From positions 66,682 through 130,681 of the forward strand of contig CABZJY010000001.1 of the NCBI GenBank assembly GCA_902526175.1: a DNA stretch of 64,000 bases, read 5' to 3'. A program made the translations under genes and the position numbers. This document shows, piece after piece, positions 14,635 through 63,793 of this stretch (positions are counted from its first letter, which is position 1; each line of letters opens with the position of its first letter). This stretch comes from an uncultured Alphaproteobacteria bacterium (GTDB taxonomy: Bacteria; Pseudomonadota; Alphaproteobacteria; Methylaequorales; Methylaequoraceae). Below the pieces are notes generated by a model. The model did no database searches, was not told where the DNA came from, and saw only the letters and a program-made list of their open reading frames with translations.

Positions 14635-14644
14635 AGAGTTTTTA

Positions 14645-14818
14645 ATGAAATGGTTTATAATAGATTATGAAATTTCAATTTTTGGTAAAGATACTGAGAC
14701 TGTAAAAGCCACAGATAAAGAAACAGCAAAATCTATTGCTTTATTAGAAATTGCGAAAAGGCACGGAGTAAAAGAGCACGAAATAGAAATTTTTAGTTGT
14801 AAAGTTATTCAATCCTAA
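14645..14818 (+). CDS. Possible 57-aa protein
   Basis: My translation: MKWFIIDYEISIFGKDTETVKATDKETAKSIALLEIAKRHGVKEHEIEIFSCKVIQS. Below the track length cut-off; its 3' end overlaps the convergent pyrC-like gene by 14 nt. Confidence 0.25.
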   Translation: MKWFIIDYEISIFGKDTETVKATDKETAKSIALLEIAKRHGVKEHEIEIFSCKVIQS

Positions 14819-16136
14819 ATTTTATTTTTTGGCCTCTTGGCTTGCCTAATATTTGGTCTTCAGACATAACAATTTCTCCATTTACAATTGTATGAACAGG
14901 CCATCCAATAACTGTTTCTCCATCATATGGAGTCCATCCAGATTTGCTAGCTATCCAATTATTTTCAATTCTTCTTTTTTTTTTCAAGTCGACAATTGTA
15001 AAATCTGCATCATTTCCAACTTCAATCTTACCTTTTCCAATGATACTAAATATTTTGCAAGGGTTTGAGGAAGTTAGTCTAACAAAATCATGAATTCCAA
15101 TTTTATTTTGATTAACAAAATTAAGCATTATTGGGACTAATGTCTGAACTCCAGTCATGCCTGAAGGAGAATTTGGATATTTTTTTTTTTTCTCTTCCAG
15201 AGTATGGGGAGCATGATCTGAACCAATAACATCAATGATTTTATTTTTTACTCCGTACCATATTCCTTCTTGATGATCCTTACTCCTAATAGGAGGATTC
15301 ATTTGTGCTAATGTCCCCAATTTTTGGTAACAATCAGGTGAATGAAAATATAAATGTTGAGGTGTAGCTTCACAGGTAACTAATTTTTTATTTTTTTTTA
15401 TTAAATCTATTTCTTCTTTTGTTGATATATGCAAGATATGTATTTTTCTGGAAACCTTTTTTGAAATTTGAATTAACCTTTTTGTGCTCTCAATTGCTGA
15501 GATAGAATCTCTCCATATTGGGTGATATTTAACATCTACATTAGAATCATTGACAATTGTTTTTCTTTTTCTTAATCTATACTCATCCTCAGAATGTATC
15601 GCAACTCGTCTGGCGCCACAAGCTAATATTTTTTCTAAACTATTATCATCTTCTATCAATAAACTTCCTGTTGAAGAACCCATAAATATTTTAATTCCAG
15701 AACAGCCTTCGCTTTTTTCAAGATATTTTAATTCTCCAATATTTTCTCTTACAGCACCAATATAGAAACTATAATTACAAAAACTGTTGTCTTCTGCTAT
15801 TTTTAATTTTTGATTAAGGGCTTCCACTGTGGATGTTGGTGGATTAGTATTAGGCATTTCAAAGATACTAGTGATTCCCCCAAGTATGGCTCCCCTCGTA
15901 CCAGAGTTAATATCCTCCTTATGAGTAAGTCCTGGTTCTCTAAAATGTACTTGTGAATCAATGCATCCTGGTAATATTGTCAAATTACTCATATCATATG
16001 TGTTTTTACCCTTATTTTGATTAATATTACCAATATGAGATATTTTATTTTTTTTTATACCAATATCAATTTCAGACTGAATGCTATTTCCAACGAAAGC
16101 ATTTCCATTTTTCAAGATATAGTCAAAATATTCCAT
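14805..16136 (-). CDS. pyrC: Dihydroorotase-type cyclic amidohydrolase
   Basis: CIDSQVHFREPG metal-binding motif and GSDHAPHTLEEK; 443 aa. An allantoinase or hydantoinase alternative cannot be excluded. Confidence 0.6.
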   Translation of the reverse strand: MEYFDYILKNGNAFVGNSIQSEIDIGIKKNKISHIGNINQNKGKNTYDMSNLTILPGCIDSQVHFREPGLTHKEDINSGTRGAILGGITSIFEMPNTNPPTSTVEALNQKLKIAEDNSFCNYSFYIGAVRENIGELKYLEKSEGCSGIKIFMGSSTGSLLIEDDNSLEKILACGARRVAIHSEDEYRLRKRKTIVNDSNVDVKYHPIWRDSISAIESTKRLIQISKKVSRKIHILHISTKEEIDLIKKNKKLVTCEATPQHLYFHSPDCYQKLGTLAQMNPPIRSKDHQEGIWYGVKNKIIDVIGSDHAPHTLEEKKKKYPNSPSGMTGVQTLVPIMLNFVNQNKIGIHDFVRLTSSNPCKIFSIIGKGKIEVGNDADFTIVDLKKKRRIENNWIASKSGWTPYDGETVIGWPVHTIVNGEIVMSEDQILGKPRGQKIKFRIE

Positions 16137-16148
16137 CTTAAATTATTA

Positions 16149-17891
16149 TTAATTATAATTTTCCAATATATCAAAAGAATTTCCAAAGTCCTTAATATTT
16201 TCATGGTGAATGAGAAACCAGATAGAAAAAAATAATAATCTCCAAACTATTATAGAATTCTTTTTGTTATTTTTAGTATTCATACATAAACTTTTAATTT
16301 TAGAGGGTTTAAGAAGTTCATTAAGTATTTTACTTTTTGGAAGTAGATCAGATAGTATTTTAGATTTTTTTGGAATCCATTCTGATATAGGAACTGTAAA
16401 ACCCTCTTTTTTTGAAAAAGCTTTATAAAAAGGAATTTCATTATTTAGAAAAACTCTGAGACAGTATTTACCGTAATTATTTTTAATTTTGCTTTCATCG
16501 GTCATAAAAAAAAAGTTTTCAAATAATTCTTTGTCTACTAATGGGGTCCTGCCCTCAATACTGTGAGCCATTAGACATCTATCCAACTTAGTTAAAATGT
16601 TATTCGGTAACCATTCATAATAATCAAAAATTTGATCCTTTTGTAAAGCAGTTAAATCATAATCAAATATTTTTGATTTAACGAACGATAAATCAAAATC
16701 CCATTTTGTCTTATTACTTTCTTCAGCAAGAAATTTATCAAATATACCTCTACTTAAAAATCCCTTTCTAAACCTCTTTCTTAAATTATCTCTATACCTT
16801 CCATAACCAGCAAATAATTCATCACCACCCTCGCCTGTTAAAACAACCTTTACATAATTTTTTGCCACTGAAGCTAATTTATAGGTCGGTATTATTGCAT
16901 AGTCTGATACTGGATCATCCATAAAACTAATAGATTTTGGTAAAATATTCCAAAAATCGTTTTCACTAAATTCAATGGATTGTAAATTAGCTCCAAATCT
17001 TTTTGCAAGTAATCCAATGTCATCATTCTTTTTTTCCATACCTTTAAAAAAAATATTGAATGCTTTTATTGGCTTTTTATTAATCAAAGACATAAGATAC
17101 AATACCAAGGTAGAATCAATACCTCCTGAAAAAAAAACTCCATAGGGTACATCACTTCTTTGATGAAGATATACTGATTCTAATAATTTATCTTTCAATT
17201 TATTATGACTAACAACAACTTTTTTTGTTGAATTTTCAATATTTATAATTTTACTTTTTATAATCTTAAAATCTCTAATTATCAGAGTCTCTCCAGGTCT
17301 TATTCTTGAAATATTTTTAAAAATTGTTTTTCTCCCTGAATTAAATTGTATTTGTACTAATTCAACAATTTTTCTTTTATCTATTTTCTTTTTTATTAAT
17401 TTTGATTTAATTATTGGTTTAATTTCTGATGAAAAAACAAAATTATTATTATCTTGGAAAAAATATAATGGTTTAATGCCAAAGGAATCTCTTGACAGGA
17501 TTAGCTCTTTTTTAGTTTTGTCATAGATTGCAAACGAAAACATACCCCTTAACTTTTCAAAACCCTTAATTCCATATTTTTTATATACTGCAATTATAGT
17601 CTCGCAATCTGAATTTGTTTTATACTTGAAATCTTTTAACAAATTTCTCAATTCAAGATCATTATAAATTTCTCCATTAGCTACCAAAACACACCCAGCG
17701 TTTATTATAGGTTGTATTCCACCTTCAATATCAACAATTGATAATCTTTTATGAACAAAAATAAGGTTTTTACTTTTAAAAGTTCCAGTATTGTCAGGCC
17801 CCCGATGATGAAGTAAGTTTCCTGCATTAAGAAATTTGTTAACTTTTCTTTTATCCAACTCTTTTGATAATAATCCTAAGAATCCACACAT
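16149..17891 (-). CDS. asnB: Asparagine synthase (glutamine-hydrolysing) family amidotransferase
   Basis: N-terminal MCGF (Cys2 nucleophile) and FFSGGIDS PP-loop; 580 aa; within a glycosyltransferase block. Confidence 0.7.
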   Translation of the reverse strand: MCGFLGLLSKELDKRKVNKFLNAGNLLHHRGPDNTGTFKSKNLIFVHKRLSIVDIEGGIQPIINAGCVLVANGEIYNDLELRNLLKDFKYKTNSDCETIIAVYKKYGIKGFEKLRGMFSFAIYDKTKKELILSRDSFGIKPLYFFQDNNNFVFSSEIKPIIKSKLIKKKIDKRKIVELVQIQFNSGRKTIFKNISRIRPGETLIIRDFKIIKSKIINIENSTKKVVVSHNKLKDKLLESVYLHQRSDVPYGVFFSGGIDSTLVLYLMSLINKKPIKAFNIFFKGMEKKNDDIGLLAKRFGANLQSIEFSENDFWNILPKSISFMDDPVSDYAIIPTYKLASVAKNYVKVVLTGEGGDELFAGYGRYRDNLRKRFRKGFLSRGIFDKFLAEESNKTKWDFDLSFVKSKIFDYDLTALQKDQIFDYYEWLPNNILTKLDRCLMAHSIEGRTPLVDKELFENFFFMTDESKIKNNYGKYCLRVFLNNEIPFYKAFSKKEGFTVPISEWIPKKSKILSDLLPKSKILNELLKPSKIKSLCMNTKNNKKNSIIVWRLLFFSIWFLIHHENIKDFGNSFDILENYN

Positions 17892-50353: not shown

Positions 50354-50449
50354 TAAAACTTTTTTGTTTAAAAAAACAAATACAAAAATAATATTCTTTA
50401 ATTTTTTTTTTTTTTATATATTCTTAAGGTGCTGATTTTTCAGCTATAG

Positions 50450-50720
50450 CAATAAATGTTTGATGAGGAATCGAGGCGGACCCGGGGGCGGTACCCGGCG
50501 CCTCCACCAAAGTTTAAGGGGGCGATATAGGATCGACGTGCGTGGAATTATCAAAACTTTGCTCGGTGTAGTTCCGTCGTTATTGGACTAAAACATAATA
50601 AGTGCCAACGATAATGAAATGGTACTCGCTGCTTAAATATTAAGTAAGCGCGGCTGTGAGACGCCGGGCAACAGAAGTCTCATCGGCAAGGGCGGGCAAT
50701 TGTTCGCCCTTGTTTGTTTT
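50450..50720 (+). ncRNA. ssrA: Two-piece (circularly permuted) tmRNA; the 5' boundary is approximate
   Basis: Acceptor piece ends ...CCGGG-GGCGGTA-CCCGG-CGCCTCC-A-CCA at 50509. The coding piece starts GGGGGCG at 50518 and pairs with CGCCTCC, including a G3:U pair. Tag ORF 50604-50636 GCC AAC GAT AAT GAA ATG GTA CTC GCT GCT TAA encodes ANDNEMVLAA. CTCATCG (50679-50685) pairs with TGATGAG (50461-50467). Ends in a hairpin plus a T-run. Confidence 0.85.
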
Positions 50721-50832
50721 AGGCACAGTCACAAAGGGTTTCAGAGGATTCACTCTTCAACAAATAAGGGAAACAAAAGTGCAATAAGTTCAATGCACTT
50801 TCAATGCACTTTCAATGCACTCTTGTTTGTTC
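50672..50832 (+). repeat. Module M0 (attL-like): native ssrA left side, then core, terminator and right arm with 3x CAATGCAC
   Basis: Core 50672-50720. Right arm AGGCACAGTCACAAAGGGTTTCAGAGGATTCACTC... CAATGCAC at 50791, 50802 and 50813. Ends TCTTGTTTGTTC. Confidence 0.85.
50688..50720 (+). terminator. Rho-independent terminator of ssrA
   Basis: AAGGGCG-GGCAATTGTT-CGCCCTT followed by GTTTGTTTT. Identical copies lie at 53894-53926, 55823-55855 and 57385-57417. Confidence 0.75.
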
Positions 50833-50835
50833 TTT

Positions 50836-52038
50836 TTAATCATTAAGTTCAATAACACGATGGAATTTAAACAATAATTTTTTATGTTTAGGTTTTATTT
50901 TCCATAGAAAATCGTAACCCTTTTTTTTAATAAAATTTTGCCACCCATCTATTTTTACCCATAAAAGATAATCTAACGTAATATCTCCTGTCTCTAACAA
51001 AGTAAAAAAGTTGGTGGAATCTATAGATCCAGTATGTGTTAATGTTTTATAATGAAAACTTTCATTTTCTGATCGCTTCTGACCTGAGGTAATTGCCTTT
51101 ATCCAAAATGTCTCTTTATGTTTCTCCTCTAGTTTTTGGATAAGTTCACTTTTCAACCAGGCTACATCTTCTTCAATAATATTATTAGGTTGGTAGACCT
51201 GTAAGACTTTGTCATCTTTAATATCTAATCTCAAATCATGAGAATTTTTTTTTATTGCACTAATAGTATTGAAGATAACTTTAAAATGATATTTATCACT
51301 TGGTTTACCCCTTTTTTCTACAATGTCTTCTGAACTTTTAAGATTACTGATATTCCAATTTGGAACTTTAGAAAATAAAGTATCTCTAGTTTTAAAATCA
51401 TTTCTACTTGTTTTTATCTCTATTCCTTTATAATCAGGTTTGCCTGAACTATTGGGTTTAATGCCACATAGATTTTCAAATGTTAGACCAATACCTGTAT
51501 CACCTGCTTTAATTGTTTTTACAAATCCCAGTTTTGATATTTCCTTACATTTATCTAAAAGTTCATTTGAAAATTGAGAATAGATAACATTTTTTTTTAT
51601 TAACTCATTAACCCTTTTATCCGTTGAATTAAATAAATTTTCTAAACTAGAAGAACTACAATTAATTACTATTAACTTTTTATCACTTGCCATTAATGCT
51701 AATAAATCTGTAGGTTTTGAATATTTTGATAAGTTATAAATCCATATTCTTGGGTCACCATTTTTGGTATGAGGTCTGTAAAATGAAGTTTTTGTTTTAA
51801 TAATCTCATTTTTTGAAAATAAAAAAGTTTCTGAAATTTTTTTATGCTCCTCACCTTGTTTTTGCGAATGATAATCATGAATTTTATTTTCTTTTAAAAA
51901 ATCTCTAACTGAATGAGTTGCATCTATAATAGATTTACTAATAGCAGTTTCTGTGGGTACTAAAAAAGTAACCTGCTTATCATACCTTTTAAAAACATCT
52001 AATGTCTCAGTTATATTTTTGTTCGAAATAGAAAGCAT
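50836..52038 (-). CDS. Putative type II restriction endonuclease: MutH/MvaI/BcnI-like C-terminal nuclease domain plus an unknown N-terminal domain of about 170 aa (cassette A)
   Basis: GDTGIGLTFENLCGIKPNSSGKPDYKGIEIKTSR matches the G..G...E..G....PD-x4-E-x-K pattern of that nuclease family. Lies immediately downstream of a C5-MTase. Confidence 0.55.
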   Translation of the reverse strand: MLSISNKNITETLDVFKRYDKQVTFLVPTETAISKSIIDATHSVRDFLKENKIHDYHSQKQGEEHKKISETFLFSKNEIIKTKTSFYRPHTKNGDPRIWIYNLSKYSKPTDLLALMASDKKLIVINCSSSSLENLFNSTDKRVNELIKKNVIYSQFSNELLDKCKEISKLGFVKTIKAGDTGIGLTFENLCGIKPNSSGKPDYKGIEIKTSRNDFKTRDTLFSKVPNWNISNLKSSEDIVEKRGKPSDKYHFKVIFNTISAIKKNSHDLRLDIKDDKVLQVYQPNNIIEEDVAWLKSELIQKLEEKHKETFWIKAITSGQKRSENESFHYKTLTHTGSIDSTNFFTLLETGDITLDYLLWVKIDGWQNFIKKKGYDFLWKIKPKHKKLLFKFHRVIELND

Positions 52039-52051
52039 AAAACTATTTGAT

Positions 52052-53326
52052 TTAACTTATTTCATTTCTTAAAATTAAATTTTTAAAAAATTTTCCAATT
52101 TCGTAGGCAAGTTTTGGAGGCACTGCATTTCCTATTTGTGTATATTTTGGAACCTCTCTATCAAAAATAGATGTTCTTGGATTCCCTGCCCGCCTTATTC
52201 CACCTGTGGTTCTTTTTCCGTAAAATTTATACCAATCTGGAAATGTTTGTATTCTTGCCATCTCTCTGACAGTGATTGATCGTGGTTGAGAATAATGAAC
52301 AAAATCGTCTGGCAATGAACAAGTTGTTATCGAAGGTCCACTATTACTCCAAACTTTTGGTAATACTCTTTGAGCAAATTTTTTTGTCTTTAATTCTTCG
52401 GGTATTTTGCCATTATTTTTAATCATAAAATTGAATCTCTTGATAACAGTCTCGCTATGTCTACTATACTGTTGTTCTGATAGATCATTCAAATAACTTG
52501 AATTTCCGTTATTTTTTGACCTAAACATTTTTTGCCATTTATTTTGGGGTGCTTTACTATAAAATTTTGACTCTCCACCGTATTCAAAATCCTTATCTAC
52601 AAGGTCAGACAGAATTTCCTCAATATTAGGATAATCATTGGTTGGTTTTGGAAGAAACCCACCCTCAATTGCATCGATATTCTCTCGATTAACATCCTTA
52701 AAATAATTTTTGTTTAAACCTACTAGTATAACCCTTGGTCTATTTTGGGGAACACCATAATCCTTTGCATGAAGTAATTTATACTTGATTATATAATTAG
52801 GAATTTCTGTAAAAGTATTTAACACATCGTTGAAGATTTCACCTTTGATACCATTCTTTGTCCATCTTGCACTCAATAAACCTCTTACATTTTCAAATAA
52901 AAAAATTTTTGGTTGAATCTTAAAAATCATATATGCCATATCTTGATAAAGATGATTTGAAGGTAATTGAATCTTATCTACGGAATAAGATCGTCTAATT
53001 CCTATTCCAGAGAAACCTTGACACGGTGGTCCACCTACCAATAAATCAACAGGTGTATCTTTTAGATCAAGGTTTAGGTTTTTTTTTATTTCTGACTTAA
53101 ATTTTTCAAAAAATTTCTCATCACTAACAACATCTTTGATGTCATTTGAATTTAATTTTTTTCTCAAATACGGAAATTGATTATCTCTATTGATCAAATA
53201 AGATTCCAATGCATCATTATTAAGTTCATTTACATATATTGGAATAAAACCTGCTTGTTCTAAACCTAACGAGAGTCCTCCACAACCTGCAAATAAATCA
53301 ATTAGAGTAAATTTTTTTTTAGTCAT
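52052..53326 (-). CDS. DNA (cytosine-5)-methyltransferase (cassette A)
   Basis: Motif I DLFAGCGG, IV GGPPCQGFS, VI FENV, VIII PQNRPRV and X GNAVPP. Confidence 0.9.
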   Translation of the reverse strand: MTKKKFTLIDLFAGCGGLSLGLEQAGFIPIYVNELNNDALESYLINRDNQFPYLRKKLNSNDIKDVVSDEKFFEKFKSEIKKNLNLDLKDTPVDLLVGGPPCQGFSGIGIRRSYSVDKIQLPSNHLYQDMAYMIFKIQPKIFLFENVRGLLSARWTKNGIKGEIFNDVLNTFTEIPNYIIKYKLLHAKDYGVPQNRPRVILVGLNKNYFKDVNRENIDAIEGGFLPKPTNDYPNIEEILSDLVDKDFEYGGESKFYSKAPQNKWQKMFRSKNNGNSSYLNDLSEQQYSRHSETVIKRFNFMIKNNGKIPEELKTKKFAQRVLPKVWSNSGPSITTCSLPDDFVHYSQPRSITVREMARIQTFPDWYKFYGKRTTGGIRRAGNPRTSIFDREVPKYTQIGNAVPPKLAYEIGKFFKNLILRNEIS

Positions 53327-53770: not shown

Positions 53771-54037
53771 GTCCGTGCAGAAGTCGTGCAGAAAATGACC
53801 TCATTTTCAATGCACTTTTCAATGCACTATTTTCAAAACCCCAAGAAATAAAGGGTTTTAGACCAAACACCGAGACACAGAAGTCTCATCGGCAAGGGCG
53901 GGCAATTGTTCGCCCTTGTTTGTTTTAAGCACAGTCACAAAGGGTTTCAGAGGACTCACTCATCACAAATAAGGGAAATAATAGTGCAATAAAGTACAGA
54001 CACTTTACAGACACTTTACAGACACTTTTGTTTGTTC
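53771..54037 (+). repeat. Module M1 (complete attP-like unit): left arm with 2x CAATGCAC, core, terminator, right arm with 3x TACAGACAC
   Basis: GTCCGTGCAGAAGTCGTGCAGAAAATGAC... CAATGCAC at 53808 and 53820. Core 53878-53926. TACAGACAC at 53995, 54006 and 54017. Ends TTTTGTTTGTTC. Confidence 0.85.
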
Positions 54038-54379
54038 AATATATGTTCTACTCTACATTTTGCAGACCCCAACATACACATCTCAAACACATCAAATGTA
54101 TAAATAGTTATAGATGATTATGGACTATGAGAAAATGTTAAGACACATGAACAATGTTTCTTGTGATATATGGAATGATTTAGTAATAGTTTAATTTATT
54201 GATTTTAAATTGAACACCTAGTCGATTAAACGAACTTTAACGGAAATTATAGGATTTAGAATCCATTCAGTTCTTTTGTAAGTCAATGTGAGTAGGATTT
54301 TTAAATTTATTAACACATAAATTTATAAACTTTTATACAGATCAATTATTAATGGAATAAAAATTGCTATTATGTTGGT

Positions 54380-55225
54380 ATGAAAGATAATGCAATAGGA
54401 TTAGTTAACGCCAAACATGGAAACTTCATGTTTTATAATTACGATTCATTTGTTGGAATGAGTATAAGAGAATACGGTGAGTGGTCGGAAAAATTACTAC
54501 AAAAAATTTTATCATTTATAAAAAAATCGGATTATATAATTGATATTGGTTCACATGTAGGTTTGATGAGTATACCAATTGCTAAAAAAGTTGGAGAAAA
54601 AGGGATGGTTTATTCTTTTGAACCTCAAAGAATGCTTTATAATCTTCAGTGTGGGAATCTCGCTTTAAATAACATAAAGAATATAGAAACTTTTAATGTC
54701 GCAATGGGCAAATCATCAAAACATATTTTACTTGATGATATTGACTATTCTGAAATAGGTAACTTTGGAGGTTTTGGGATAAAAAAAAATTATAATTATT
54801 CAGAATTTATTTCAATAAGAAAAAATAAAAAAATGAAAATAAAAATTCAAAATCTAGATAAATTTCTTAATTTAAAAAAATGTAATTTGATTAAACTAGA
54901 AGCAGAACAACTTGAAACTGAAATTCTAAAAGGAGGAAAAAAGTTTTTGGATAAATTTAGACCTATAATTGTTTCTGAGAATAACCCTAAAAATCCATAT
55001 ACACTTAATAAATATTTAATATCTCAAAACTACAAACTTTTTTGGTTTGAATACAAGTTCTTTAACGAAGATAATTATTTGGTAAATTCAAATAATTATT
55101 TCAAAAATTCAGGTAAATTTTACATATTTGCTTTTCCTAAAGAAAAAAAAATCAAAGACCCAGATATGGTTGAGATTGTTCGACCTGATCAAAAAAACAT
55201 GAATTACAATGGCAACCTTCAGTAA
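54380..55225 (+). CDS. FkbM-family SAM-dependent methyltransferase (cassette B)
   Basis: IIDIGSHVGLMSIPIAKK and VYSFEPQ motifs in the FkbM/Methyltransf_21 pattern. Confidence 0.65.
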   Translation: MKDNAIGLVNAKHGNFMFYNYDSFVGMSIREYGEWSEKLLQKILSFIKKSDYIIDIGSHVGLMSIPIAKKVGEKGMVYSFEPQRMLYNLQCGNLALNNIKNIETFNVAMGKSSKHILLDDIDYSEIGNFGGFGIKKNYNYSEFISIRKNKKMKIKIQNLDKFLNLKKCNLIKLEAEQLETEILKGGKKFLDKFRPIIVSENNPKNPYTLNKYLISQNYKLFWFEYKFFNEDNYLVNSNNYFKNSGKFYIFAFPKEKKIKDPDMVEIVRPDQKNMNYNGNLQ

Positions 55226-55362
55226 TTAAAAAATACTTCTGCATGGGAGTTTTTTTACTCCACAAAATTTGGTTTTACGCTTTTAAAGTTACACTATGAG
55301 AATCGGGATCTCTCCCTTTTGCATCAGTATAAACAAGATATTCAGTATCGATTTTCATTGTA

Positions 55363-55677
55363 TTATCGACTAATTGAACCTTTTAAACTTCCAGTAGAAT
55401 CAAAAATCTTTTTCTTATTTTTAATTCTTCCTTTGTATTTTCCATAAGGGTCATAAATCTTCCCACTACTTTCAATCTTTCCAAAAAACTTTCCATAAGG
55501 TGAGTATATACTTCCTTCTTTTGTTATTTTTCCTTTGTATTTTTCAAAGGGATCAAAAAAAAGACCATCATCAAATTTACCTTTGTATTTTCCATACTTA
55601 TCAAAGATTTTTTCATCTTCTGACTTCACTTCAAAAGATACAAACAAACAAATCAGAATCAGTAATATTTTTTGCAT
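55363..55677 (-). CDS. Small secreted protein with about five tandem [FY]-[DS]-x-[YF]-G-K-[YF]-K-G-[KR] repeats (cassette B)
   Basis: Signal peptide MQKILLILICLFVSFEV. Repeats: FDKYGKYKGKF, FDPFEKYKGKI, YSPYGKFFGKI, YDPYGKYKGRI and FDSTGSLKGSI. Confidence 0.5.
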   Translation of the reverse strand: MQKILLILICLFVSFEVKSEDEKIFDKYGKYKGKFDDGLFFDPFEKYKGKITKEGSIYSPYGKFFGKIESSGKIYDPYGKYKGRIKNKKKIFDSTGSLKGSISR

Positions 55678-55697
55678 AATTTATTGTAGCAGAAAAG

Positions 55698-55972
55698 TAG
55701 TCTGTGCAGAAGTCGTGCAGAAAATGACATCAATTTACAGACACTTTTACAGACACTTTTTAAGAACTCCGCAGAAACAGTGGGTCTTAGACCAAACACC
55801 GAGACACAGAAGTCTCATCGGCAAGGGCGGGCAATTGTTCGCCCTTGTTTGTTTTAGCGAAACTCACAAAGGGTTTCAGAGGATTCACTCAACAGAAAAT
55901 AAGGGAAAATAAAACGAGTAAAAGTGCAGACACACGCAGACACTAATGAGTGTTTTATATTTGTTCTATATG
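55698..55972 (+). repeat. Module M2: left arm with 2x TACAGACAC, core, terminator, right arm with 2x GCAGACAC
   Basis: TAGTCTGTGCAGAAGTCGTGCAGAAAATGAC... TACAGACAC at 55736 and 55748. Core 55807-55855. GCAGACAC at 55926 and 55936. Confidence 0.85.
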
Positions 55973-56054
55973 CATCTTTGGAAAATTCAAATATAATATA
56001 AAATACTTAAAGTAAGTAAAGAGTATATTGGTATAAAACTTGCTCCCTTAATTC

Positions 56055-57218
56055 ATGTATAAAACATCTTATTATGATGATTTTAAATGTATTGGATCAG
56101 AATGTCCTAATTCATGTTGCGTAGGTTGGGAGATAGATCTTGATATTAAAACTTTTCAAAAATATAGAGACTTGCATGATAGTAACATAAATAAATGCAT
56201 TTCTGTGAATCAAAAACCAACATATGACAAATTCGCAAAAATTAAAAATGTCAAGGATCAAAGATGTTCTTTTCTAGACAAAAATAATCTTTGTAATATT
56301 CAAAAAAAATATTCAGAAAAACTTCTATCTCCAACATGTTCAAATTTTCCAAGGCGGAAAGTTGATTTTGGGTCTAAACAATTGTCATCATGTTTACTAA
56401 GTTGTCCTGAAATATCGAGAATTTTTTTTGCAGACAATGAAGAATTTAAAATCATTGATGATGAGAAAAAATTAGTTGATACAAATTTAAAGATTATTCC
56501 TGACGAATTTAGGAACAATCTTTATGCAGTGTCTGGAGAAAGAGTCTTTAATTTCCTATATAAGTTATATAACAGTAGTGATATATCTCTAGAAAAATGT
56601 TTGATGATCACAAATCAAATTATTAACGAATTTTCTAATAAAAAAATAGAACCTCACGAACTTAATGAAGTTTTTAAGTATATAAAAAGTTTTTTTTTAA
56701 ATCATAAAATTGAAAAAAAAATAGATACAGAAATGCAACTAAACTTCTTAAAGAAATTTTTTAGATGTTTTCTAAACAAGAAAATTAATAATAAACTTAG
56801 TGAGTTAATTAACAAACTCTATGCAGATTGTTTTTTAAACAGAGACTTAAAAAAAATTAAATTATTATACGAAAAAAACAAATTACATAATTTCAATCAA
56901 TTTCTAATAAAACATCCAAATATATTTAAAAAATTTTTTATACATGAGTTCTTCGGTAAAACTCAATTGCTCACTAATGAAGATTTTGACTCTAATGACG
57001 GTTTTTATTTAATTTTTTTTATAGCATTGGTCTCTAAACTAATCATAATTTTAAATACTTTGTATAAAGACAAAATAGTCGTTGAGGATTTTATTGAGGT
57101 TATTTCTTTGGTCTCTAGATATTATGGTGGAAAAGATAATCTTGATAAAGACGAAAAAGAATTAGTATCTAAAGATAATCAAACCTTTGTGAATCTTTTT
57201 TATCTATTTTTTGGGTAA
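56055..57218 (+). CDS. FliB-like (flagellin lysine-N-methylase family) Cys-cluster protein (cassette C)
   Basis: The N-terminus YYDDFKCIGSECPNSCCVGWEIDLDIKTFQKYR matches the F.CIG..C...CC.GW.I..D..T..KY signature I recall for FliB/YkgJ-type Cys-cluster proteins. Confidence 0.55.
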   Translation: MYKTSYYDDFKCIGSECPNSCCVGWEIDLDIKTFQKYRDLHDSNINKCISVNQKPTYDKFAKIKNVKDQRCSFLDKNNLCNIQKKYSEKLLSPTCSNFPRRKVDFGSKQLSSCLLSCPEISRIFFADNEEFKIIDDEKKLVDTNLKIIPDEFRNNLYAVSGERVFNFLYKLYNSSDISLEKCLMITNQIINEFSNKKIEPHELNEVFKYIKSFFLNHKIEKKIDTEMQLNFLKKFFRCFLNKKINNKLSELINKLYADCFLNRDLKKIKLLYEKNKLHNFNQFLIKHPNIFKKFFIHEFFGKTQLLTNEDFDSNDGFYLIFFIALVSKLIIILNTLYKDKIVVEDFIEVISLVSRYYGGKDNLDKDEKELVSKDNQTFVNLFYLFFG

Positions 57219-57228
57219 AAAACTAAAG

Positions 57229-57517
57229 AAAAATGTTCCCAGATTACTATGGTTAAAAGTAAGTTCGTTCAGAAGTCGTTCTTAAAAAATAGAAAAACGC
57301 AGACACAAACGCAGACACTATTTTCAAAACCCTCAGAAATTAAGGGTTTTAGACCAAACACCGAGACACAGAAGTCTCATCGGCAAGGGCGGGCAATTGT
57401 TCGCCCTTGTTTGTTTTAGGGAGACTCACAAAGGGTTTCAGAGGATTAACTCTTCAACAAATAAGGGAAACAATAGTGCAATAAAGTACAGACACTTTAC
57501 AGACACTCTACAGACAC
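57229..57517 (+). repeat. Module M3: extended left arm with 2x ACGCAGACAC, core, terminator, right arm with 3x TACAGACAC
   Basis: AAAAATGTTCCCAGATTACTATGGTTAAAAGTAAGTTCGTTCAGAAGTCGTTC... ACGCAGACAC at 57297 and 57309. Core 57369-57417. TACAGACAC at 57487, 57498 and 57509. Confidence 0.85.
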
Positions 57518-57581
57518 TTTTTAAGAATACCAAGAAACAAAGGGACTTAAGTCATTTACCAAGACACAGGAATCTCATCTA
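57518..57581 (+). repeat. Module M3b: decayed left arm plus left half of core only (right end of the empty cassette D)
   Basis: TTTTTAAGAATACCAAGAAACAAAGGGACTTAAGTCATTTACCAAGACACAGGAATCTCATCT aligns with the M2 left arm TTTTTAAGAACTCCGCAGAAACAGTGGGTCTTAGACCAAACACCGAGACACAGAAGTCTCATCGG. Confidence 0.65.
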
Positions 57582-57753: not shown

Positions 57754-58509
57754 ATGCCAAAATATGAAATTAAATCTAAAACAAATAATTTAACATTCAA
57801 AAGATCAGATGGATCCCTTGGAGTAGTAGAAATTAGATTTTTTATTGAAGCAATTAAAGAATTTAACAGAATTATAAGAATTTTTGATGATGTAGAAATC
57901 CCGATTGGAGATATTTTAGGACTCAGGAATCTCAGTGCCTTCGTAGGAGAAGTTTTTAATCGATCAGTAAAAAAAATATCGGGTGGGTATATACAAAATA
58001 ATCCCCATCAAGATGGTTATCCCGACCTATTGATTATGGATAATATAGGAAAAAACTTATGGGACAAATTATCATCTCAACACCACGAAAAAGAACCTTT
58101 TAGTCCTTTTGTAGCGGGCGGAATAGAGGTAAAAGCAACATGTGGAGATCTTAAAAGTGGAAAATGGTTTACCGAAAAAAATATTCCTAAACCCATCATT
58201 GGTGACCAAAGATTGGAATGGGTTACGGGTTATAATTGGAAAGCACATCATAGAGAAACAAATAATCTAATTGGTTTGATATGGGATTTTGTAGAAAGAA
58301 AACCCACTATTGTTAGCATAATGTATTCTAATAATCTTAAGGAAGAAGATTGGGGCAAGACTGTAACTCCAAAAGAAGGAGGTGGAAGAACAACTTCTGT
58401 TAGTATAATGAATAAGATGGGAATTAAAAAAATGAAAGATGGAATAATATTATTGATAAATGACCAAAAATATTCAGTCCCTTTCATTAAAAAATTAAGT
58501 AAATATTAA
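57754..58509 (+). CDS. Putative type II restriction endonuclease, PD-(D/E)XK fold (cassette E)
   Basis: GYPDLLIMD ... GGIEVKATCG (PD...ExK). Convergent with the adjacent C5-MTase and overlapping it by 15 nt. Confidence 0.55.
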   Translation: MPKYEIKSKTNNLTFKRSDGSLGVVEIRFFIEAIKEFNRIIRIFDDVEIPIGDILGLRNLSAFVGEVFNRSVKKISGGYIQNNPHQDGYPDLLIMDNIGKNLWDKLSSQHHEKEPFSPFVAGGIEVKATCGDLKSGKWFTEKNIPKPIIGDQRLEWVTGYNWKAHHRETNNLIGLIWDFVERKPTIVSIMYSNNLKEEDWGKTVTPKEGGGRTTSVSIMNKMGIKKMKDGIILLINDQKYSVPFIKKLSKY

Positions 58510-59817
58510 TTGCTTTTGAATTAATGTTTCATTCAAGTCAAAGTTTTTCGAAGCAATACTTTGTAAATTTTTTAAAAGTATTTCTATGATTAATGGAGGA
58601 ACGCTCTCGCCAAGTGTGTCTCTTATAGTTGTTAGTTTAGCATCAACACCTTTGCATGTTTCAAAATAAAAATCTTCATTTGATATTGTATGTAATAAGC
58701 ATGCCTCTCTTATTGAAAGTGACCTATTTTGCTCTGGGTGTATCTTATTATCACTACAAACATAAGGAAAATTTCGAGTTATAGCAGAAGCAGGCAAGTC
58801 CCAATCCATTCTTTTATAAGCACTTGTAAAACCAGTCATAATCTGAATTTTTCCATTTTTTTTAATTGATGGTCTTGGAAGTAAAGCATTACAATTTTTA
58901 CAATAAACTGGAGTATCTCTTGAAGACTTATTAACTCCAAATGAATTTTTATTGCTTGAATGAAGTTTATTTTTGTTAAATCCACAACTTACACATTGAT
59001 TATCAAAAGCAGATTTGTTTAAGGGAGTATTGCTTACCCACCAAAATTTCATTTCATCTAATTTAGGCACTTTATGGAGAGGATCATTAAAGGAATTAGT
59101 TTTAGTCTTACCATCTAATTTTTCTAGACTACCAATTACATCCCTAACAGTTACCCATTTCATTAATCCTTCATTAGAGTTTTTTGAATGTGTCTTCGGG
59201 GGAAAAAAAGAACCATAATTCATTTTATGTTTCTTTATAAGGTCACTCCTAGTAGCAATAGTAATCAATCTCAATCGACGCTGGGGTATACCATAATCAG
59301 CAAATTCTATGACTTTTGGTTCAACTTCATATTCTGTAAGAGTATTTTTTATTATCTCAATAATAGGCAATATTTTTCCATCAAAAGGAATACTTGTATT
59401 GATCATTTCTGATACATTTTCAAAAATTACCGTGGTTGGTTTTAATTCTTTTATAATTTCTAATGCAGGTATTATTAATAAATTTCTAGGATCGATTTTA
59501 GGTCTTCTACCGGCATTTATTTCTGCTAAGAGTTTACCTCTTCCATTTTTAGACATTCCTTGACACGGAGGGGTAACAAGAGCGTAATCTAATTTATGTC
59601 CATTAAGTTTTAATAAAGTTTGTTGTATAATTTCTGATTTCTTTTCATTAATGTCACCCTCAATTAAGTGTGTTTCTGGAAAATTTCGCCGAAATAACTT
59701 ACATCTATCTTCAAGTAACTCATTTGCAACGATAGTCTCAATATTACATCTTTTTAGTGCTATATCACCTATTCCAGAGGATGAAAATAAACTAATCGCT
59801 TTATATCTATTATCCAT
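58495..59817 (-). CDS. DNA (cytosine-5)-methyltransferase (cassette E)
   Basis: Motif I LFSSSGIGD, IV TPPCQGMS, VI FENVSEM, VIII PQRRLRL and X GESVPP. Confidence 0.85.
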   Translation of the reverse strand: MDNRYKAISLFSSSGIGDIALKRCNIETIVANELLEDRCKLFRRNFPETHLIEGDINEKKSEIIQQTLLKLNGHKLDYALVTPPCQGMSKNGRGKLLAEINAGRRPKIDPRNLLIIPALEIIKELKPTTVIFENVSEMINTSIPFDGKILPIIEIIKNTLTEYEVEPKVIEFADYGIPQRRLRLITIATRSDLIKKHKMNYGSFFPPKTHSKNSNEGLMKWVTVRDVIGSLEKLDGKTKTNSFNDPLHKVPKLDEMKFWWVSNTPLNKSAFDNQCVSCGFNKNKLHSSNKNSFGVNKSSRDTPVYCKNCNALLPRPSIKKNGKIQIMTGFTSAYKRMDWDLPASAITRNFPYVCSDNKIHPEQNRSLSIREACLLHTISNEDFYFETCKGVDAKLTTIRDTLGESVPPLIIEILLKNLQSIASKNFDLNETLIQKQLIFT

Positions 59818-59983
59818 TTTGATATCAAAAACTATATCTATATAATTATAAACTAATCAATTATTTTTATCATACATCGTTCATCTTCTTTTTCAAACTA
59901 CACTAACATCTTTGTCCGCCGAAGTTATTAAAAACTTTTACCAAGATGTAGGAAATCAAAAACAAATGGTAAATGACCACATA

Positions 59984-60166
59984 AAATTGTTCCCAGATTA
60001 CTTTGGTTAAAAGTAAGTTTGTTCAGAAGTCGTTCTTAAAAAATAGAAAAACGCAGACACTATTTTCAAAACCGGAAGAAATAAAGTGTTTCAGACCATA
60101 CGCCGAGACACAGAAGTCAAATCGGCAAGGGTTTGAAATTGTTAATTGTTCGCTCTTATTTGTTTT
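59984..60166 (+). repeat. Module M4 (attR-like): left arm with 1x ACGCAGACAC plus a decayed core and terminator, probably the displaced ancestral ssrA 3' end
   Basis: The left arm matches the M3 left arm from AAAATTGTTCCCAGATTACTTTGG. The core reads CAGAAGTCAAATCGGCAAGGGTTTGAAATTGTTAATTGTTCGCTCTTATTTGTTTT, with substitutions and an insertion that break the hairpin. Confidence 0.7.
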
Positions 60167-60215: not shown

Positions 60216-61070
60216 TTAAATTACATAACCTATTTTCTCTTTATTGATTTTATTAATTAAATGTTCAGGTTTTTTTGTGAAAAAATGATTTCTCCATATA
60301 GTTCTAGATGATTTTATCTTAGGTTTGGGAATTGTGAGTGGTTTAAATTCTCTGATTAAACCTTTATTAGTCATTAAGTAAGAGTCATAACCAAAATTTA
60401 TCAATAGATTAAATAGTTTATTATTAAAAGGATTATTGATGTTAAACTCTATAATAAGATCAACATTTCTTAATGTTTCCAATATTTTTGTTGATGAAAT
60501 TATTTTATATTCCCACCCTTCAACATCAATTTTAATTAAATAATTTTTTTTTGGATTAATATCTTTAAGTACACTAGAAAAGGGAATTGTACTCACTTCT
60601 ATAGTCTCATATTTAATTTTTTCATAAATTCTTTTCATTTCCTCAATATCTAATGTAGACGAAGATGCAAGTTTAGATGAATTCTTTGCAATAGGTACAT
60701 GGAATTTTGATTTTCCAAATTTATTAGAAATTGCGGTCTCATTAATTTCAAAAAAAATATTATTAAGCTTCATTATTTTTTTTATATATTCAATATTTCT
60801 TGGGTATGCCTCATATGCAGTAGTTGGCCATCCCTTAATTTTTGTTGCATAAAAACTAAATAAACCAATGTTAGCTCCAATATCAAAAAAGTGATCGTAT
60901 CTAAAAAAATCAAAAAAAATTAACATTTCTTCCTCATACGAGTTTGAAATAAATATTTCTATGAGGAGATTAGAGTCCTTAATATTAGTATATTTTGTGC
61001 CTTCAAATATTAGTGAAGGCGGAAATATTCTTAATTTAAATAATATTCTTTTCAATAATGAAGTAAACAT
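60216..61070 (-). CDS. FkbM-family SAM-dependent methyltransferase
   Basis: FFDIGANIGLFSFYATK and AYEAYP motifs. Confidence 0.65.
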   Translation of the reverse strand: MFTSLLKRILFKLRIFPPSLIFEGTKYTNIKDSNLLIEIFISNSYEEEMLIFFDFFRYDHFFDIGANIGLFSFYATKIKGWPTTAYEAYPRNIEYIKKIMKLNNIFFEINETAISNKFGKSKFHVPIAKNSSKLASSSTLDIEEMKRIYEKIKYETIEVSTIPFSSVLKDINPKKNYLIKIDVEGWEYKIISSTKILETLRNVDLIIEFNINNPFNNKLFNLLINFGYDSYLMTNKGLIREFKPLTIPKPKIKSSRTIWRNHFFTKKPEHLINKINKEKIGYVI

Positions 61071-61247
61071 TTTTCAATCTGATGTGTCTGAACAGTAAAC
61101 TATTTTTTTTGTTTTATGAAGATTTTTTTTACTCATCTATTTCATTTCATAAAATCTATTTCTATAATTTTGTCTTTAAGTTATTTATCTATATCTTTTA
61201 AAAATGCGAATAAAATTGTAAAAAAATAATACCAAAATTATATTGAT

Positions 61248-62720
61248 ATGTTGTTTAGTTCCTTTGAGTTTATTTTTATCTTTCTTCCTATAATAATTAT
61301 ACTATTTCTATTTTTTAATAAAAAAAATAGAAATATTTTTTCTTTTGTAATTATTATCTTCTCATTATATTTTTACTCCTTCTCAAATAGTTCTTGGTTA
61401 TTAATATTAGTGTTTTCAATAATATTTAACTTCTTAGTGGGGAAGTCATTAATTAAAAATAGTTCAAAATTAATTCTTTTTTTGGGTATTTTTTCAAATT
61501 TACTTGTATTGATTTATTTTAAATATACAAATTTTTTTTTAGAAAATTTAAACAATTTTTTCTCAATTAAATTAAATTATCTTGATATTATTTTACCTAT
61601 TGGAATATCTTTTTTTACTTTTCAACAAATTGCATTTTTAATTGATGCAAATAAAAAAAAAATTAAAAATCCTTCATTTATCAACTATTCATTATTTGTA
61701 TCTTTTTTTCCACAATTAATTGCAGGACCAATTATTCTTTATGGAGATATAATTAAGCAATTAGAAAAGAAAATTTCTTTTAGGTTTTTTAAGAAAAATT
61801 TTTTTATTGGTTTATTCATATTTAACATTGGTTTATTTAAAAAAATGTGTATTGCAGATACTCTGGAAATATTTTCAAAGCCTATCTTTTACCAAGCAGA
61901 AACTGATCAGACTCTTACTTTTATTGAATGTTGGAGTGGTCTTATTTCATACAGTTTTCAAATCTATTTCGATTTTTCAGGTTATTCAGATATGGCGATA
62001 GGACTTGCAAAAATGTTTGGAATCACATTACCAATAAATTTTAATTCACCTTATAAATCTAATTCAATAATTGAATTCTGGAAAAGGTGGCACATTACTT
62101 TATCGACTTTTTTTAAGCATTATATCTACTTTCCTTTAGGTGGTAATAGAGAAGGTATATTCAGACAATTGTTAAATATTTTGTTTGTTATGACACTTGC
62201 AGGTTTTTGGCATGGAGCTTCTTGGAATTTTATTATTTGGGGAGGACTCCACGGAATATTCATAGTAACTAATCATTTGTGGAGAATTCTTACTAAAAGT
62301 TGGTTTGAGAGTAAAAAATTGAATATTATTAAAGTATTATTAACATTTTTATGTGTTACTGTTGCTTGGGCTTTTTTTAGAGCTGAAACTGTAAATGGTG
62401 CATTAAATATTATATCAGGATGTTTTCCATTCTTTAATTCATCTATATTTTTGGAATATAGTGAGATTGATTATTATCTACCTTACATCTATCAAATTAA
62501 ATGGTTTGTGTTGTTATTTATCGTTATATGGATACTTCCTAATACTAACCAAATTTCAATTTATTTGAAAAGCCCAAGTTTTAAGAGAGGTAGTTTAAGC
62601 ATCTACAAATATAATTTAAATAATAGCTACATACATCTAGTAATTATTTCTTTTTTTCTTTTTATTGCATCATTTCCAGGTAATCAATTAAATCAACCTT
62701 TTATCTATTTTCAATTTTAA
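61248..62720 (+). CDS. MBOAT-family membrane-bound O-acyltransferase (AlgI/DltB-like)
   Basis: FWKRWHITLSTFFKHYIYFPLGGNR and FWHGASWNFIIWG signature blocks with the conserved His; polytopic. Confidence 0.8.
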   Translation: MLFSSFEFIFIFLPIIIILFLFFNKKNRNIFSFVIIIFSLYFYSFSNSSWLLILVFSIIFNFLVGKSLIKNSSKLILFLGIFSNLLVLIYFKYTNFFLENLNNFFSIKLNYLDIILPIGISFFTFQQIAFLIDANKKKIKNPSFINYSLFVSFFPQLIAGPIILYGDIIKQLEKKISFRFFKKNFFIGLFIFNIGLFKKMCIADTLEIFSKPIFYQAETDQTLTFIECWSGLISYSFQIYFDFSGYSDMAIGLAKMFGITLPINFNSPYKSNSIIEFWKRWHITLSTFFKHYIYFPLGGNREGIFRQLLNILFVMTLAGFWHGASWNFIIWGGLHGIFIVTNHLWRILTKSWFESKKLNIIKVLLTFLCVTVAWAFFRAETVNGALNIISGCFPFFNSSIFLEYSEIDYYLPYIYQIKWFVLLFIVIWILPNTNQISIYLKSPSFKRGSLSIYKYNLNNSYIHLVIISFFLFIASFPGNQLNQPFIYFQF

Positions 62721-62722
62721 CT

Positions 62723-63793
62723 ATGAAAAAAAGTATCATTGTATTTACATTTATTTCTTTTATTTCGTTTGAAATATTCATGTATCTCTATGGCGCCATT
62801 TTTTCAAATTATGGAATTAGGGATGACAACTATGGCTATAGATATTTTAAAAATATTCAAATAGTTTTTAATTATAAAAATGAATTAATAAATTTCTCAA
62901 CAAATAACTATGGTTACAGAGACAAAAATTGGAATTTTGAGAGTAATGAAAAAAACAAAAGAATAGCGGTTATTGGAGATAGTATTGTATCGGCATTAGG
63001 AACACATCGAGATAGAAGATTTACTGAAATCTTAGAGAAAAAACTCTCTAAAGGAGAAAACAATTATCAGATTTTAAATATGGGAATTAATGGACAAAGT
63101 GTTATTAATCATATCAATAGCACTGATAGTATAATAAAAGAAATAAACCCTGATTATATTTTTGTAGTTTTATCAACTACCGATGATTTTGATGGCGAAA
63201 ACCACAAAACATTTCTTAATTCAAAGAAATTGACCTATCTTATAAAAAATCAAGAAGTTATAAATTTCCAAGAAAAATTAAATATTTTTGAAGATATTTA
63301 TAGAAAAATTCTTGTTTTAATTAGACAATCCTCAACTATTAATCAAGTTCATAAAACATTTAACTTTATGAAATTTAAATTTATTGAATTTACAAAATCA
63401 TCTTTAGCTGAAACTAATGAGAAATTTGATACAATTGATCATGATTCAATTTGTAACAATTCTGTATTTAAATCAAAAATTAAAATAAATCTAATTGAAA
63501 AAATTCTCATAGATATTAATAAAATAGCTAAAAATAATTTGATTTTGTTACTTTCTCCATCTGAACAAGACTTTTTGTCAAAAAAAAAAAATATTATGAA
63601 TTGCAAAGATAAGATTCATGTCTTTAATTGGTTTGATGAGTTTACGAAAAGACAAAATATCAGTAGAATTAATATTCATAAAAAATTAAATTATAAAAAT
63701 AATATTTTCTTAGATGGAGCTCATTATAATGATCACGGCCACAGGTTAGTTGCAGAAATTATTTATAAAGAATTTATTAAGCTTATGGATTAA
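62723..63793 (+). CDS. SGNH/GDSL-like hydrolase or acyltransferase partner of the MBOAT protein
   Basis: IAVIGDSIV (GDS block I) and C-terminal DGAHYNDHGH (DxxH block V); N-terminal anchor. Confidence 0.55.
   Translation: MKKSIIVFTFISFISFEIFMYLYGAIFSNYGIRDDNYGYRYFKNIQIVFNYKNELINFSTNNYGYRDKNWNFESNEKNKRIAVIGDSIVSALGTHRDRRFTEILEKKLSKGENNYQILNMGINGQSVINHINSTDSIIKEINPDYIFVVLSTTDDFDGENHKTFLNSKKLTYLIKNQEVINFQEKLNIFEDIYRKILVLIRQSSTINQVHKTFNFMKFKFIEFTKSSLAETNEKFDTIDHDSICNNSVFKSKIKINLIEKILIDINKIAKNNLILLLSPSEQDFLSKKKNIMNCKDKIHVFNWFDEFTKRQNISRINIHKKLNYKNNIFLDGAHYNDHGHRLVAEIIYKEFIKLMD

Follow-up and report, generated by a model that had tools for sequence, protein, structure and literature searches.

A candidate integrase attachment core at the 3' end of a two-piece alphaproteobacterial tmRNA gene

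The DNA downstream of ssrA, the gene for transfer-messenger RNA (tmRNA), in an uncultured alphaproteobacterium raises the question of what a repeated palindrome is doing there: GAGAC-ACAGAA-GTCTC stands at the head of several copies of the end of the gene, and a first-pass annotation had taken it for the crossover site of a tyrosine recombinase with ACAGAA as the overlap. The stretch analysed, here called the window, comprises 64,000 nucleotides (nt) of assembly GCA_902526175.1 (contig CABZJY010000001.1, positions 66,682 to 130,681 of the forward strand). It is AT-rich (28.6% G+C), the genomes closest to it are marine single-cell and metagenome-assembled genomes, and the host probably belongs to a SAR11-like lineage. 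The site is almost certainly the attachment (att) core of a small integrase family encoded in related loci (designated below by L numbers), and the palindrome is likely to be the att core of small integrative elements whose target is the 3' end of the two-piece tmRNA gene.

The ssrA gene, its repeats and an integrase family

The ssrA gene has thyX as its neighbour and no integrase gene beside it. It was matched by the Rfam model alpha_tmRNA (RF01849) at 50393-50685 with 207.6 bits against a threshold of 50, over model positions 1-355 of 355, and ARAGORN reported a permuted tmRNA with a tag peptide at 50417-50727. The first-pass annotation had made its proposal depend on a tmRNA that does not end before 50672, and the covariance-model alignment does reach 50685; since the model extends that far, the block of identity between gene and repeats overlaps ssrA itself. 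The features around this end are the following.

50393-50685, + strand: ssrA, two-piece (permuted) alphaproteobacterial tmRNA (Rfam RF01849; ARAGORN), tag ANDNEMVLAA
50651-50654 with 50663-50666: stem 1 of an H-type pseudoknot, CGGC with GCCG, from the minimum-free-energy fold
50656-50683, + strand: stem 2 of the 3'-terminal pseudoknot, in the coding piece, GUGAGAC (50656-50662) with GUCUCAU (50677-50683)
50666-50681, + strand: attL core at the native ssrA, with GGGCA (50666-50670), the candidate overlap ACAGAA (50671-50676) and GTCTC (50677-50681)
50671-50744, + strand: identity block common to element and chromosome, made up of the final 15 nt of ssrA, its terminator and then 25 nt that end in GGGTTTCAG
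50671-50692, + strand: interval containing the recombination joint (+1 to +22), bounded on the left by the differences at -4, -2 and -1 and on the right by the first strain difference at +23 (50693)

The palindrome is present at 53872, 55801 and 57363, with a half copy at 60105. The native arms lie 14 nt apart (GAGAC 50658-50662, GTCTC 50677-50681) and exact identity between ssrA and the modules, as the repeat copies are called here, begins at 50671, which is numbered +1 below; all coordinates in the first-pass annotation proved correct. The sequence GAGACACAGAAGTC occurs exactly at 53872, 55801, 57363 and 60105, and a 42-mer and the 49-mer ACAGAAGTCTCATCGGCAAGGGCGGGCAATTGTTCGCCCTTGTTTGTTT, both starting at 50671, recur exactly downstream of ssrA at 53877, 55806 and 57368. 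The far end at 60110 reads, as first described, ACAGAAGTC and then AAATCGG, and is a decayed copy of the repeat. A sixth site, truncated and degenerate (57561-57579, copy at 57566), had been missed. Three occurrences of GAGAC-N6-GTCTC were counted in the window against 0.01 expected from shuffled sequences; these are three copies of one repeat and not independent events, for which reason the count does not serve as a test, and the conservation of the adjacent CCGAGAC does. At the chromosomal site the identity reaches about +75 (...GGGTTTCAG), beyond the 49 nt. It includes the terminator hairpin at 50688-50711 with a T-run to 50719, and the terminal junctions of L003, L008 and L009 match the right arm up to GGGTTTCAG.

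A repeat unit spans about 265 bp. Its left arm, with GTGCAGAAGTCGTGCAGAAAA, a pair of short direct repeats and a small hairpin, leads into the core; the terminator hairpin of ssrA comes next, then a conserved 25-mer that ends in GGGTTTCAG, and last a right arm with three direct repeats at an 11-nt period. Two plus three direct repeats with a period of 11-12 nt were found in every complete unit.

No recombinase gene was found in the four cassette intervals of the window, and the sole integrase match in the 64 kb is a remnant at 59879-60010 (tblastn, 57% identity, E 1.6e-10). L001, the closest relative, matches the window at 95% identity as far as 50832; its insert at this point of ssrA is another one, in which a serine resolvase is accompanied by a tyrosine recombinase truncated by the contig end. 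Tyrosine recombinase genes stand next to the attP in the related loci L001, L081-L084 and L122, and four contigs (L081-L084) have a complete left arm, core and right arm after the integrase gene, the gene ending about 105 nt ahead of the core. The att units that follow the integrase gene lie at 2114 in L081, at 2086 in L082, at 2344, 11206 and 20432 in L083, where three integrase-bearing elements of about 9 kb each stand in tandem, and at 10923 in L084. The earlier proposal that the repeats are tyrosine-recombinase attachment sites is upheld by this arrangement, in which the gene of a single integrase family precedes the same left arm, core and right arm.

Full-length homologues of the integrase have 396-408 residues and keep the R...K...R-H...Y pattern. 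The protein matches the PHROG integrase phrog_1 (2.4e-25); with Pfam only a weak Phage_int_M match was obtained, and sequence searches of the PDB and NCBIfam gave no meaningful match. A predicted structure of moderate quality (predicted local distance difference test, pLDDT, 64) has fold matches to tyrosine recombinases only (Cre, Tn1549 Int, lambda Int), and its N-terminus is modelled as a beta-sheet followed by a helix (pLDDT 75-87), as in arm-binding domains. Residues 14-45, at the N-terminus, are the most variable part of the protein; no consistent pairing between them and the type of arm repeat was seen, with six cases only to compare. The family is small: matches at E up to 0.001 amount to only 333 cluster representatives among 1.84 billion proteins. 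The INPHARED phage records held no match to the integrase or to the 281-nt junction, and viral contigs held no exact match to the module junction 27-mer or the core 20-mer and no relative of the integrase. No terminal overlap that would be evidence for a circular form was present in L081.

Every integrase-bearing element (L081, L001, L083 and L084) also encodes a small serine resolvase/invertase (PF00239; 7894-8484 in L081, 2565-3155 in L001) and about ten open reading frames (ORFs) without a family match. Several left arms in the window consist, in their distal part, of the 3' end of an integrase gene. Integrase 3' remnants at 59879-60010 and at about 57214-57262 show that the window cassettes derive from integrase-bearing elements; they are decayed, integrase-less descendants of the elements of about 9 kb.

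Position of the joint and of the candidate overlap

Native and module junctions differ in a fixed manner to the left of ACAGAA. All native junctions (15/15) read CCGGGCA/ACAGAAGTCTC, the solidus marking the boundary between -1 and +1, that is GGGCA/ACAGAA followed by a right arm, and the 65 module junctions consist of a left arm followed by GAGAC/ACAGAA. Some resemblance to native ssrA persists beyond 50671 on the left. Native sites have (A)CACCGGGCA/ACAGAA (CGCCGGGCA/ACAGAA in the native ssrA of the window), the modules have CACCGAGAC/ACAGAA (also given as ACACCGAGAC), and only -4, -2 and -1 differ consistently between modules and natives. Since every native junction has GGGCA and every module junction GAGAC, the exchange lies to the right of -1. 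The junctions fit the Campbell pattern, with attL as B-O-P' and attR as P-O-B'.

The right-hand bound was taken from three pairs of related loci with different first cassettes (window and L001, L007 and L008, L002 and L005). The window and L001 differ at five positions over the 300 nt from 50393 to 50692, none of them within 50644-50692, and at 18 positions in the 140 nt from 50693 on; divergence in the upstream 1.7 kb is about 3.5%. L007 and L008 (2% diverged upstream), like L002 and L005, are identical through +22, with first differences at +23 and +36 that form a compensatory pair in the terminator stem. The terminator of L001 has the variant GGGGTGGCGATTGTCACCCC, which also occurs in the attP of the related element of L081 and L082. 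Between cassette 3 of the window and its copy in L012, high similarity has its left edge at -19 to +22. The proposal of a joint at the left end of the identity block therefore stood, with fixed native/module differences to its left and strain divergence from +23 to its right. The bracket +1 to +22, which takes in 15 nt of the tmRNA and, beyond them, the base of the terminator, can be made no finer because those 22 nt are invariant.

In a tyrosine recombinase core site the overlap, of 6-8 bp, has the same sequence in both partners and lies between inverted recombinase half-sites. Within the bracket ACAGAA(G) is the best candidate, since it lies in the only dyad there and the adjacent CCGAGAC is invariant without tmRNA constraint; it is probably the overlap. 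CCGAGAC is the sole run in the left arm that is conserved at 97% or above (23 module junctions from eight genomes and contigs); these junctions were chosen on the right-hand 20-mer only, the left half-site having played no part in the choice. In the attP a perfect 5-bp dyad surrounds ACAGAA and the candidate overlap is the same in both partners.

A second lineage has the same layout. In L122, the integrase of which (P0015) is only 32% identical, two TACTAGATAC repeats are followed by ACCGAGTC/ACAGAAGT and three more repeats, and the core is followed by a different tmRNA-like 3' end. Set against the alphaproteobacterial consensus ACCGGGCA/ACAGAA, the L122 attP is changed at the three positions that also distinguish modules from natives. 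An Rfam search of the L122 junction gave chance matches only, the fragment being too short for the tmRNA model.

In the RNA, ACAGAA is part of the pseudoknot loop that is best conserved among alphaproteobacterial tmRNAs (GGCAACAGAA), and such a conserved loop is a sensible integration target. Stem 2 of this pseudoknot covaries in 18 of 22 alphaproteobacterial tmRNAs, in which it is formed by many sequences (GGCAAGC/GCTTGCC, GGGGTT/AACCTC, GCAGGC/GCCTGC), and the Rfam consensus has GGAGg/cCucC at the same place. The first-pass annotation had assigned CTCATCG (50679-50685) to a helix between the two tmRNA pieces with TGATGAG (50461-50467). The complementarity exists; the helix was not borne out, as GUCUCAU is instead a strand of stem 2 and UGAU (50461-50464) lies in Rfam helix P2b. 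The 7-bp complementarity is confined to the window and its near-twin L001 and does not exceed 4 bp in the other relatives compared, in which the 3' strand is identical and among which the 5' anchor could be placed reliably only in L002, L008, L009, L012 and L084.

The perfect conservation of the 49-mer had been ascribed to a double constraint, by tmRNA function and by recombination. The idea was kept in other words: each incoming element supplies the last 15 nt of ssrA and a working terminator, and because it replaces both, every attP must carry both. At least five variants of the terminator stem, related by compensatory changes, were found (50688-50711; L001, L002, L009, L012, L090 and L119). 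The 5' half of the terminator is lost in some internal junctions (L089, L099 and L109).

The cassette array and the processes that may have shaped it

The integrase-bearing element is a unit of about 9 kb that carries a tyrosine integrase, a serine resolvase and ORFs without family match. Its attP runs from the integrase stop codon through a left arm of about 105 nt with two repeats, the core CCGAGAC/ACAGAA/GTCTCAT, and the ssrA 3' end with its terminator to a right arm with three repeats. CCGAGAC and GTCTCAT would be the half-sites that flank a 6-7 bp overlap ACAGAA(G), and the arm repeats would be bound by the N-terminal domain of the integrase, as its predicted fold suggests. Strand exchange would occur just inside the identity block, so that the native gene would retain GGGCA on the left and have its final 15 nt and its terminator supplied by the element; with each further integration at ssrA, older elements would be pushed outward. 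The four elements of the window have lost their integrase and persist as cassettes, their cargo being a FliB-like lysine-N-methylase, an FkbM-type methyltransferase and two restriction-modification systems; integrase supplied in trans might still move them. The array reads as follows.

50720-50832, + strand: right (P') arm of cassette 1, with TTCAATGCAC at 50789, 50800 and 50811 (11-nt period)
50836-52038, - strand: cassette 1 cargo (50836-53326), MvaI/BcnI-type restriction endonuclease (PF15515, 6e-45)
52052-53326, - strand: cassette 1 cargo, C5 DNA methyltransferase (PF00145, 8e-62)
53772-54037, + strand: junction 1 (attP-like), with GTGCAGAAGTCGTGCAGAAAA, TTCAATGCAC at 53806 and 53818, palindrome 53872-53887, 49-mer 53877-53925, and ACAGACAC at 53996, 54007 and 54018
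54380-55677: cassette 2 cargo, FkbM-type methyltransferase (54380-55225, + strand, PF05050) and a protein of 104 amino acids (55363-55677, - strand)
55701-55960, + strand: junction 2, with ACAGACAC at 55737 and 55749, palindrome 55801-55816, 49-mer 55806-55854, and GCAGACAC at 55926 and 55936
56055-57218, + strand: cassette 3 cargo, FliB-like lysine-N-methylase (NCBIfam NF038110, 178.7 bits)
57214-57518, + strand: junction 3, with an integrase 3'-end remnant at about 57214-57262, GCAGACAC at 57299 and 57311, palindrome 57363-57378, 49-mer 57368-57416, and ACAGACAC at 57488, 57499 and 57510
57519-57579, + strand: partial left arm, then the degenerate site AAGAC-ACAGGA-ATCTC (57561-57576)
57754-59817: cassette 4 cargo, a protein of 251 amino acids without family match (57754-58509, + strand) and a C5 DNA methyltransferase (58495-59817, - strand, PF00145, 2.6e-39)
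59879-60010, + strand: pseudogene remnant of an integrase C-terminus, residues 353-394 of P0001
60011-60168, + strand: distal decayed attR, with GCAGACAC once at 60053, GAGAC 60105-60109 and ACAGAA 60110-60115

Homology of the window to L001 stops at 50832, the end of the first right arm. In the distal attR GTCAA takes the place of GTCTC and the terminator is disrupted. The arm repeats lie at 50789-50820, 53806-53827, 53996-54025, 55737-55756, 55926-55943, 57299-57318, 57488-57517 and 60053-60060. Their sequence varies between cassettes (CAATGCAC, ACAGACAC and GCAGACAC in the window, at least seven more types elsewhere), and within an arm the copies are as a rule the same. Words resembling the core are also present in the arms: GTGCAGAAGTCGTGCAGAAAA (53775-53795 and 55704-55724), just past the integrase stop codon, contains CAGAAGTC, a word that the core has too, and GAGACTCACAAAG in a right arm (57421-57441) resembles GAGACACAGAAG. 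Such words may be extra binding sites.

The partial site at 57519-57579 directly follows the right arm of the site at 57368 and makes an 'empty' unit without cargo; similar close pairs of sites were seen in L083 (20432 and 20618) and in L003 (reverse strand, 16507 and 16771). Within cassette 2 a segment of 61 nt (54129-54189) is 95% identical to the start of a 106-residue ORF in L081 (3082-3142), a further relic of the parent element. Past the decayed distal site, 60216-63793 encodes an FkbM methyltransferase, a membrane protein of 490 amino acids and a protein of 356 amino acids, for which the related loci L002-L013 have no match at that position; the segment may belong to the variable part of the island as well. 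Elsewhere in the window, ARAGORN placed a tRNA-Thr(GGT) at 13341-13414, and the Rfam scan at gathering thresholds gave only a tRNA at 5406-5478.

One common cassette was found at position 1, 2 or 4 of the array in different genomes. Cassette 3 and its copy in L012 (window 55693-57509, L012 reverse strand 14475-16291) are about 98.5% identical across the interior and 95.1% identical over the 1819-nt BLAST alignment, which includes the more divergent arms, and the core and flanking DNA of the two hosts is about 70-75% identical. On this comparison, recent horizontal transfer of the single cassette is indicated.

Several observations weigh against the reading of the palindrome as a working att core with ACAGAA as its overlap, and rival accounts build on them. 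The left half-site of attB fits the dyad at only two of five positions; the L122 core, CCGAGTC-ACAGAAG-TTCTC, is symmetric at three of five with a 7-nt spacer; and the perfect 5-bp dyad of the attP may be owed in part to the sequence of the host pseudoknot stem. No polymorphism inside +1 to +22 resolves the joint, and no excised circle or empty attB was found in the data searched. The att site could thus be real and the exchange occur farther right in the 22 nt (for example in GTCTCAT or CATCGGC), with CCGAGAC as an extra or accessory binding site. Polymorphism mapping resolves only the bracket as a whole, the dyad is weak in attB and in L122, and short core words are not unique, as the GAGAC-like GAGACTCACAAAG at 57421 in a right arm and CAGAAGTC in the left arm testify. 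Nevertheless no further dyad is present in +1 to +22, and an invariant CCGAGNC abuts the identity boundary in both of the distant integrase lineages; as Williams reportedly found in 2002, the crossover of tRNA- and tmRNA-targeting integrases normally lies at the gene-proximal edge of the identity block, which weighs against exchange farther right. Such a displaced exchange is considered unlikely. What remained of the first-pass claim is ACAGAA as best candidate, at the left edge of the identity block. That the module palindrome is a mere by-product of descent from the pseudoknot stem, an 8-nt deletion having joined GAGAC...GUCUC with no role in recombination, is very improbable. Both 5-mers do make stem 2 of the native pseudoknot, but an ungapped alignment to native ssrA ((A)ACACCG.G../ACAGAA, 8/14 matches to L003-type natives) beats the alignment with a deletion, the left 7-mer is invariant in the modules, where no RNA function applies, and CCGAGTC is kept in L122 despite a different right side.

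Other rivals concern the process by which cassettes move rather than the site. An intact integrase is absent from the window, which leaves current activity here conjectural; arm-repeat types agree at both ends of a cassette in 7/17 cases and across a junction in 6/18, an enrichment without a clean rule; and between cassette 3 and its L012 copy a cluster of six changes is confined to the terminator. Cassettes could accordingly be gained, lost and shuffled mainly by homologous recombination in the identity blocks of 49-75 nt and the arms of about 85% identity, the palindrome being a relic of an attP. The four 49-mers of the window, all identical though population variants exist, and the 'empty' units of arms only, which resemble internal deletions, also speak for this account. 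It leaves unexplained that natives always have GGGCA and modules always GAGAC, that strain divergence begins exactly past the invariant stretch, and that CCGAGAC is invariant; as the dominant process it is rather doubtful, and it is compatible with integrase-driven insertion rather than exclusive of it. Since the arm-repeat types are mosaic, homologous exchange and gene conversion do also shape the arrays, as does deletion, and such processes may be the only ones active in this genome now, given that the window has no integrase. An integron-like array, with folded single-stranded attC-like hairpins and an IntI-type enzyme, would account for promoterless-looking cassettes beside a fixed site and for hairpins with compensatory changes in each repeat. 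The hairpin, however, is the intrinsic terminator of ssrA, the associated enzyme has an N-terminus of the arm-binding type and is encoded inside the mobile element rather than beside the array, the repeats span about 265 bp with arm repeats, and cargo genes lie in both orientations; an integron of this kind is hardly credible.

Integrase-driven insertion at ssrA, as set out above, is thus preferred. An extension of it is offered tentatively, as a possibility: the ssrA locus might be an integron-like capture platform run in trans, for which transient relatives of about 9 kb would provide the integrase and in which the arm repeats would be a specificity code read by the variable N-terminus. Cassettes without an integrase but with an entire 265-bp attP unit would in that case leave the array, pass between distant hosts and insert again beside ssrA. 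If true, this would be a concrete mechanism for the turnover of flexible islands in streamlined genomes reputed to be free of mobile elements.

Comparison with known systems

The system works like classical integrative elements that target tRNA and tmRNA genes (tDNA) and have a lambda-type attP. SAR11-type genomes are usually described as without canonical mobile elements, with islands that lack integrases (PMC11796062); here, contrary to that picture, a tmRNA-linked island is built by a definable integrase/att system. What is new is the target, the terminal pseudoknot of a permuted tmRNA gene, which adds to the known sublocations of integration, together with a small uncharacterized integrase family and its occurrence in SAR11-like genomes, whose islands are reported to be integrase-free (PMC11796062). 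Restriction-modification cassettes are exchanged among hosts with core genomes only about 70-75% identical, and island turnover becomes testable with a defined integrase and defined DNA substrates.

Two other kinds of site were considered and set aside. A XerCD/dif-type site came into question through the 6-nt spacer and was dropped once a dedicated integrase with arm sites had been found. Integrons share with this locus an array of small cassettes by a fixed chromosomal site and cassettes common to distant hosts, but neither IntI nor attC-type sites were found, the recombinase is carried by the mobile unit and the repeats are double-stranded attP-like units.

Cis-mobilizable elements (CIMEs) are att-flanked elements without recombination genes that form tandem accretion arrays in streptococci. 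By analogy, the window cassettes would resemble them in their att flanks, lost recombination genes, descent from integrase elements of the same site and tandem placement; they are much smaller (1.5-3.2 kb). The tycheposons of Prochlorococcus, the tyrosine recombinases of which are deep-branching (bioRxiv 10.1101/2020.12.28.424599), are likened to the present elements by lifestyle only: they have a streamlined marine host, tyrosine recombinases and tRNA/tmRNA sites, and they too form arrays separated by partial tDNA copies, in which newer elements displace older ones into the island and degenerate remnants accumulate. The host here is instead a SAR11-like alphaproteobacterium, and attP-like arms are complete in the remnants.

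Among the tDNA islands of the Islander collection (PMC4383910) the tmRNA gene shows the strongest enrichment as a target. The elements described here agree with these islands, and with prophages whose tyrosine integrases use such genes, in integration at the 3' end of a tDNA, restoration of the gene by the element's own copy, a displaced 3' fragment at the far end and tandem arrays. They differ in the target, which is not the anticodon loop, the T loop or the T/acceptor junction but the pseudoknot loop and stem 2 in the coding piece of a permuted tmRNA. An integrase within each island, as the Islander definition has it, is present in L083 and L084 and lacking from the four cassettes of the window, which have the 3' fragments but would not count as islands by that definition. 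Likeness to the lambda attP, which serves a heterobivalent integrase through core-type and arm-type sites, extends to the span of about 265 bp, the central dyad, the candidate overlap of 6-7 bp and the two integrase-proximal and three distal-arm repeats, and likeness to lambda Int to the predicted N-terminal beta-sheet/helix domain, although a sequence relation between the two enzymes is undetectable beyond the fold. Unlike those of lambda, the arm repeats vary between elements, and a serine resolvase is present in place of an excisionase, none of which was identified.

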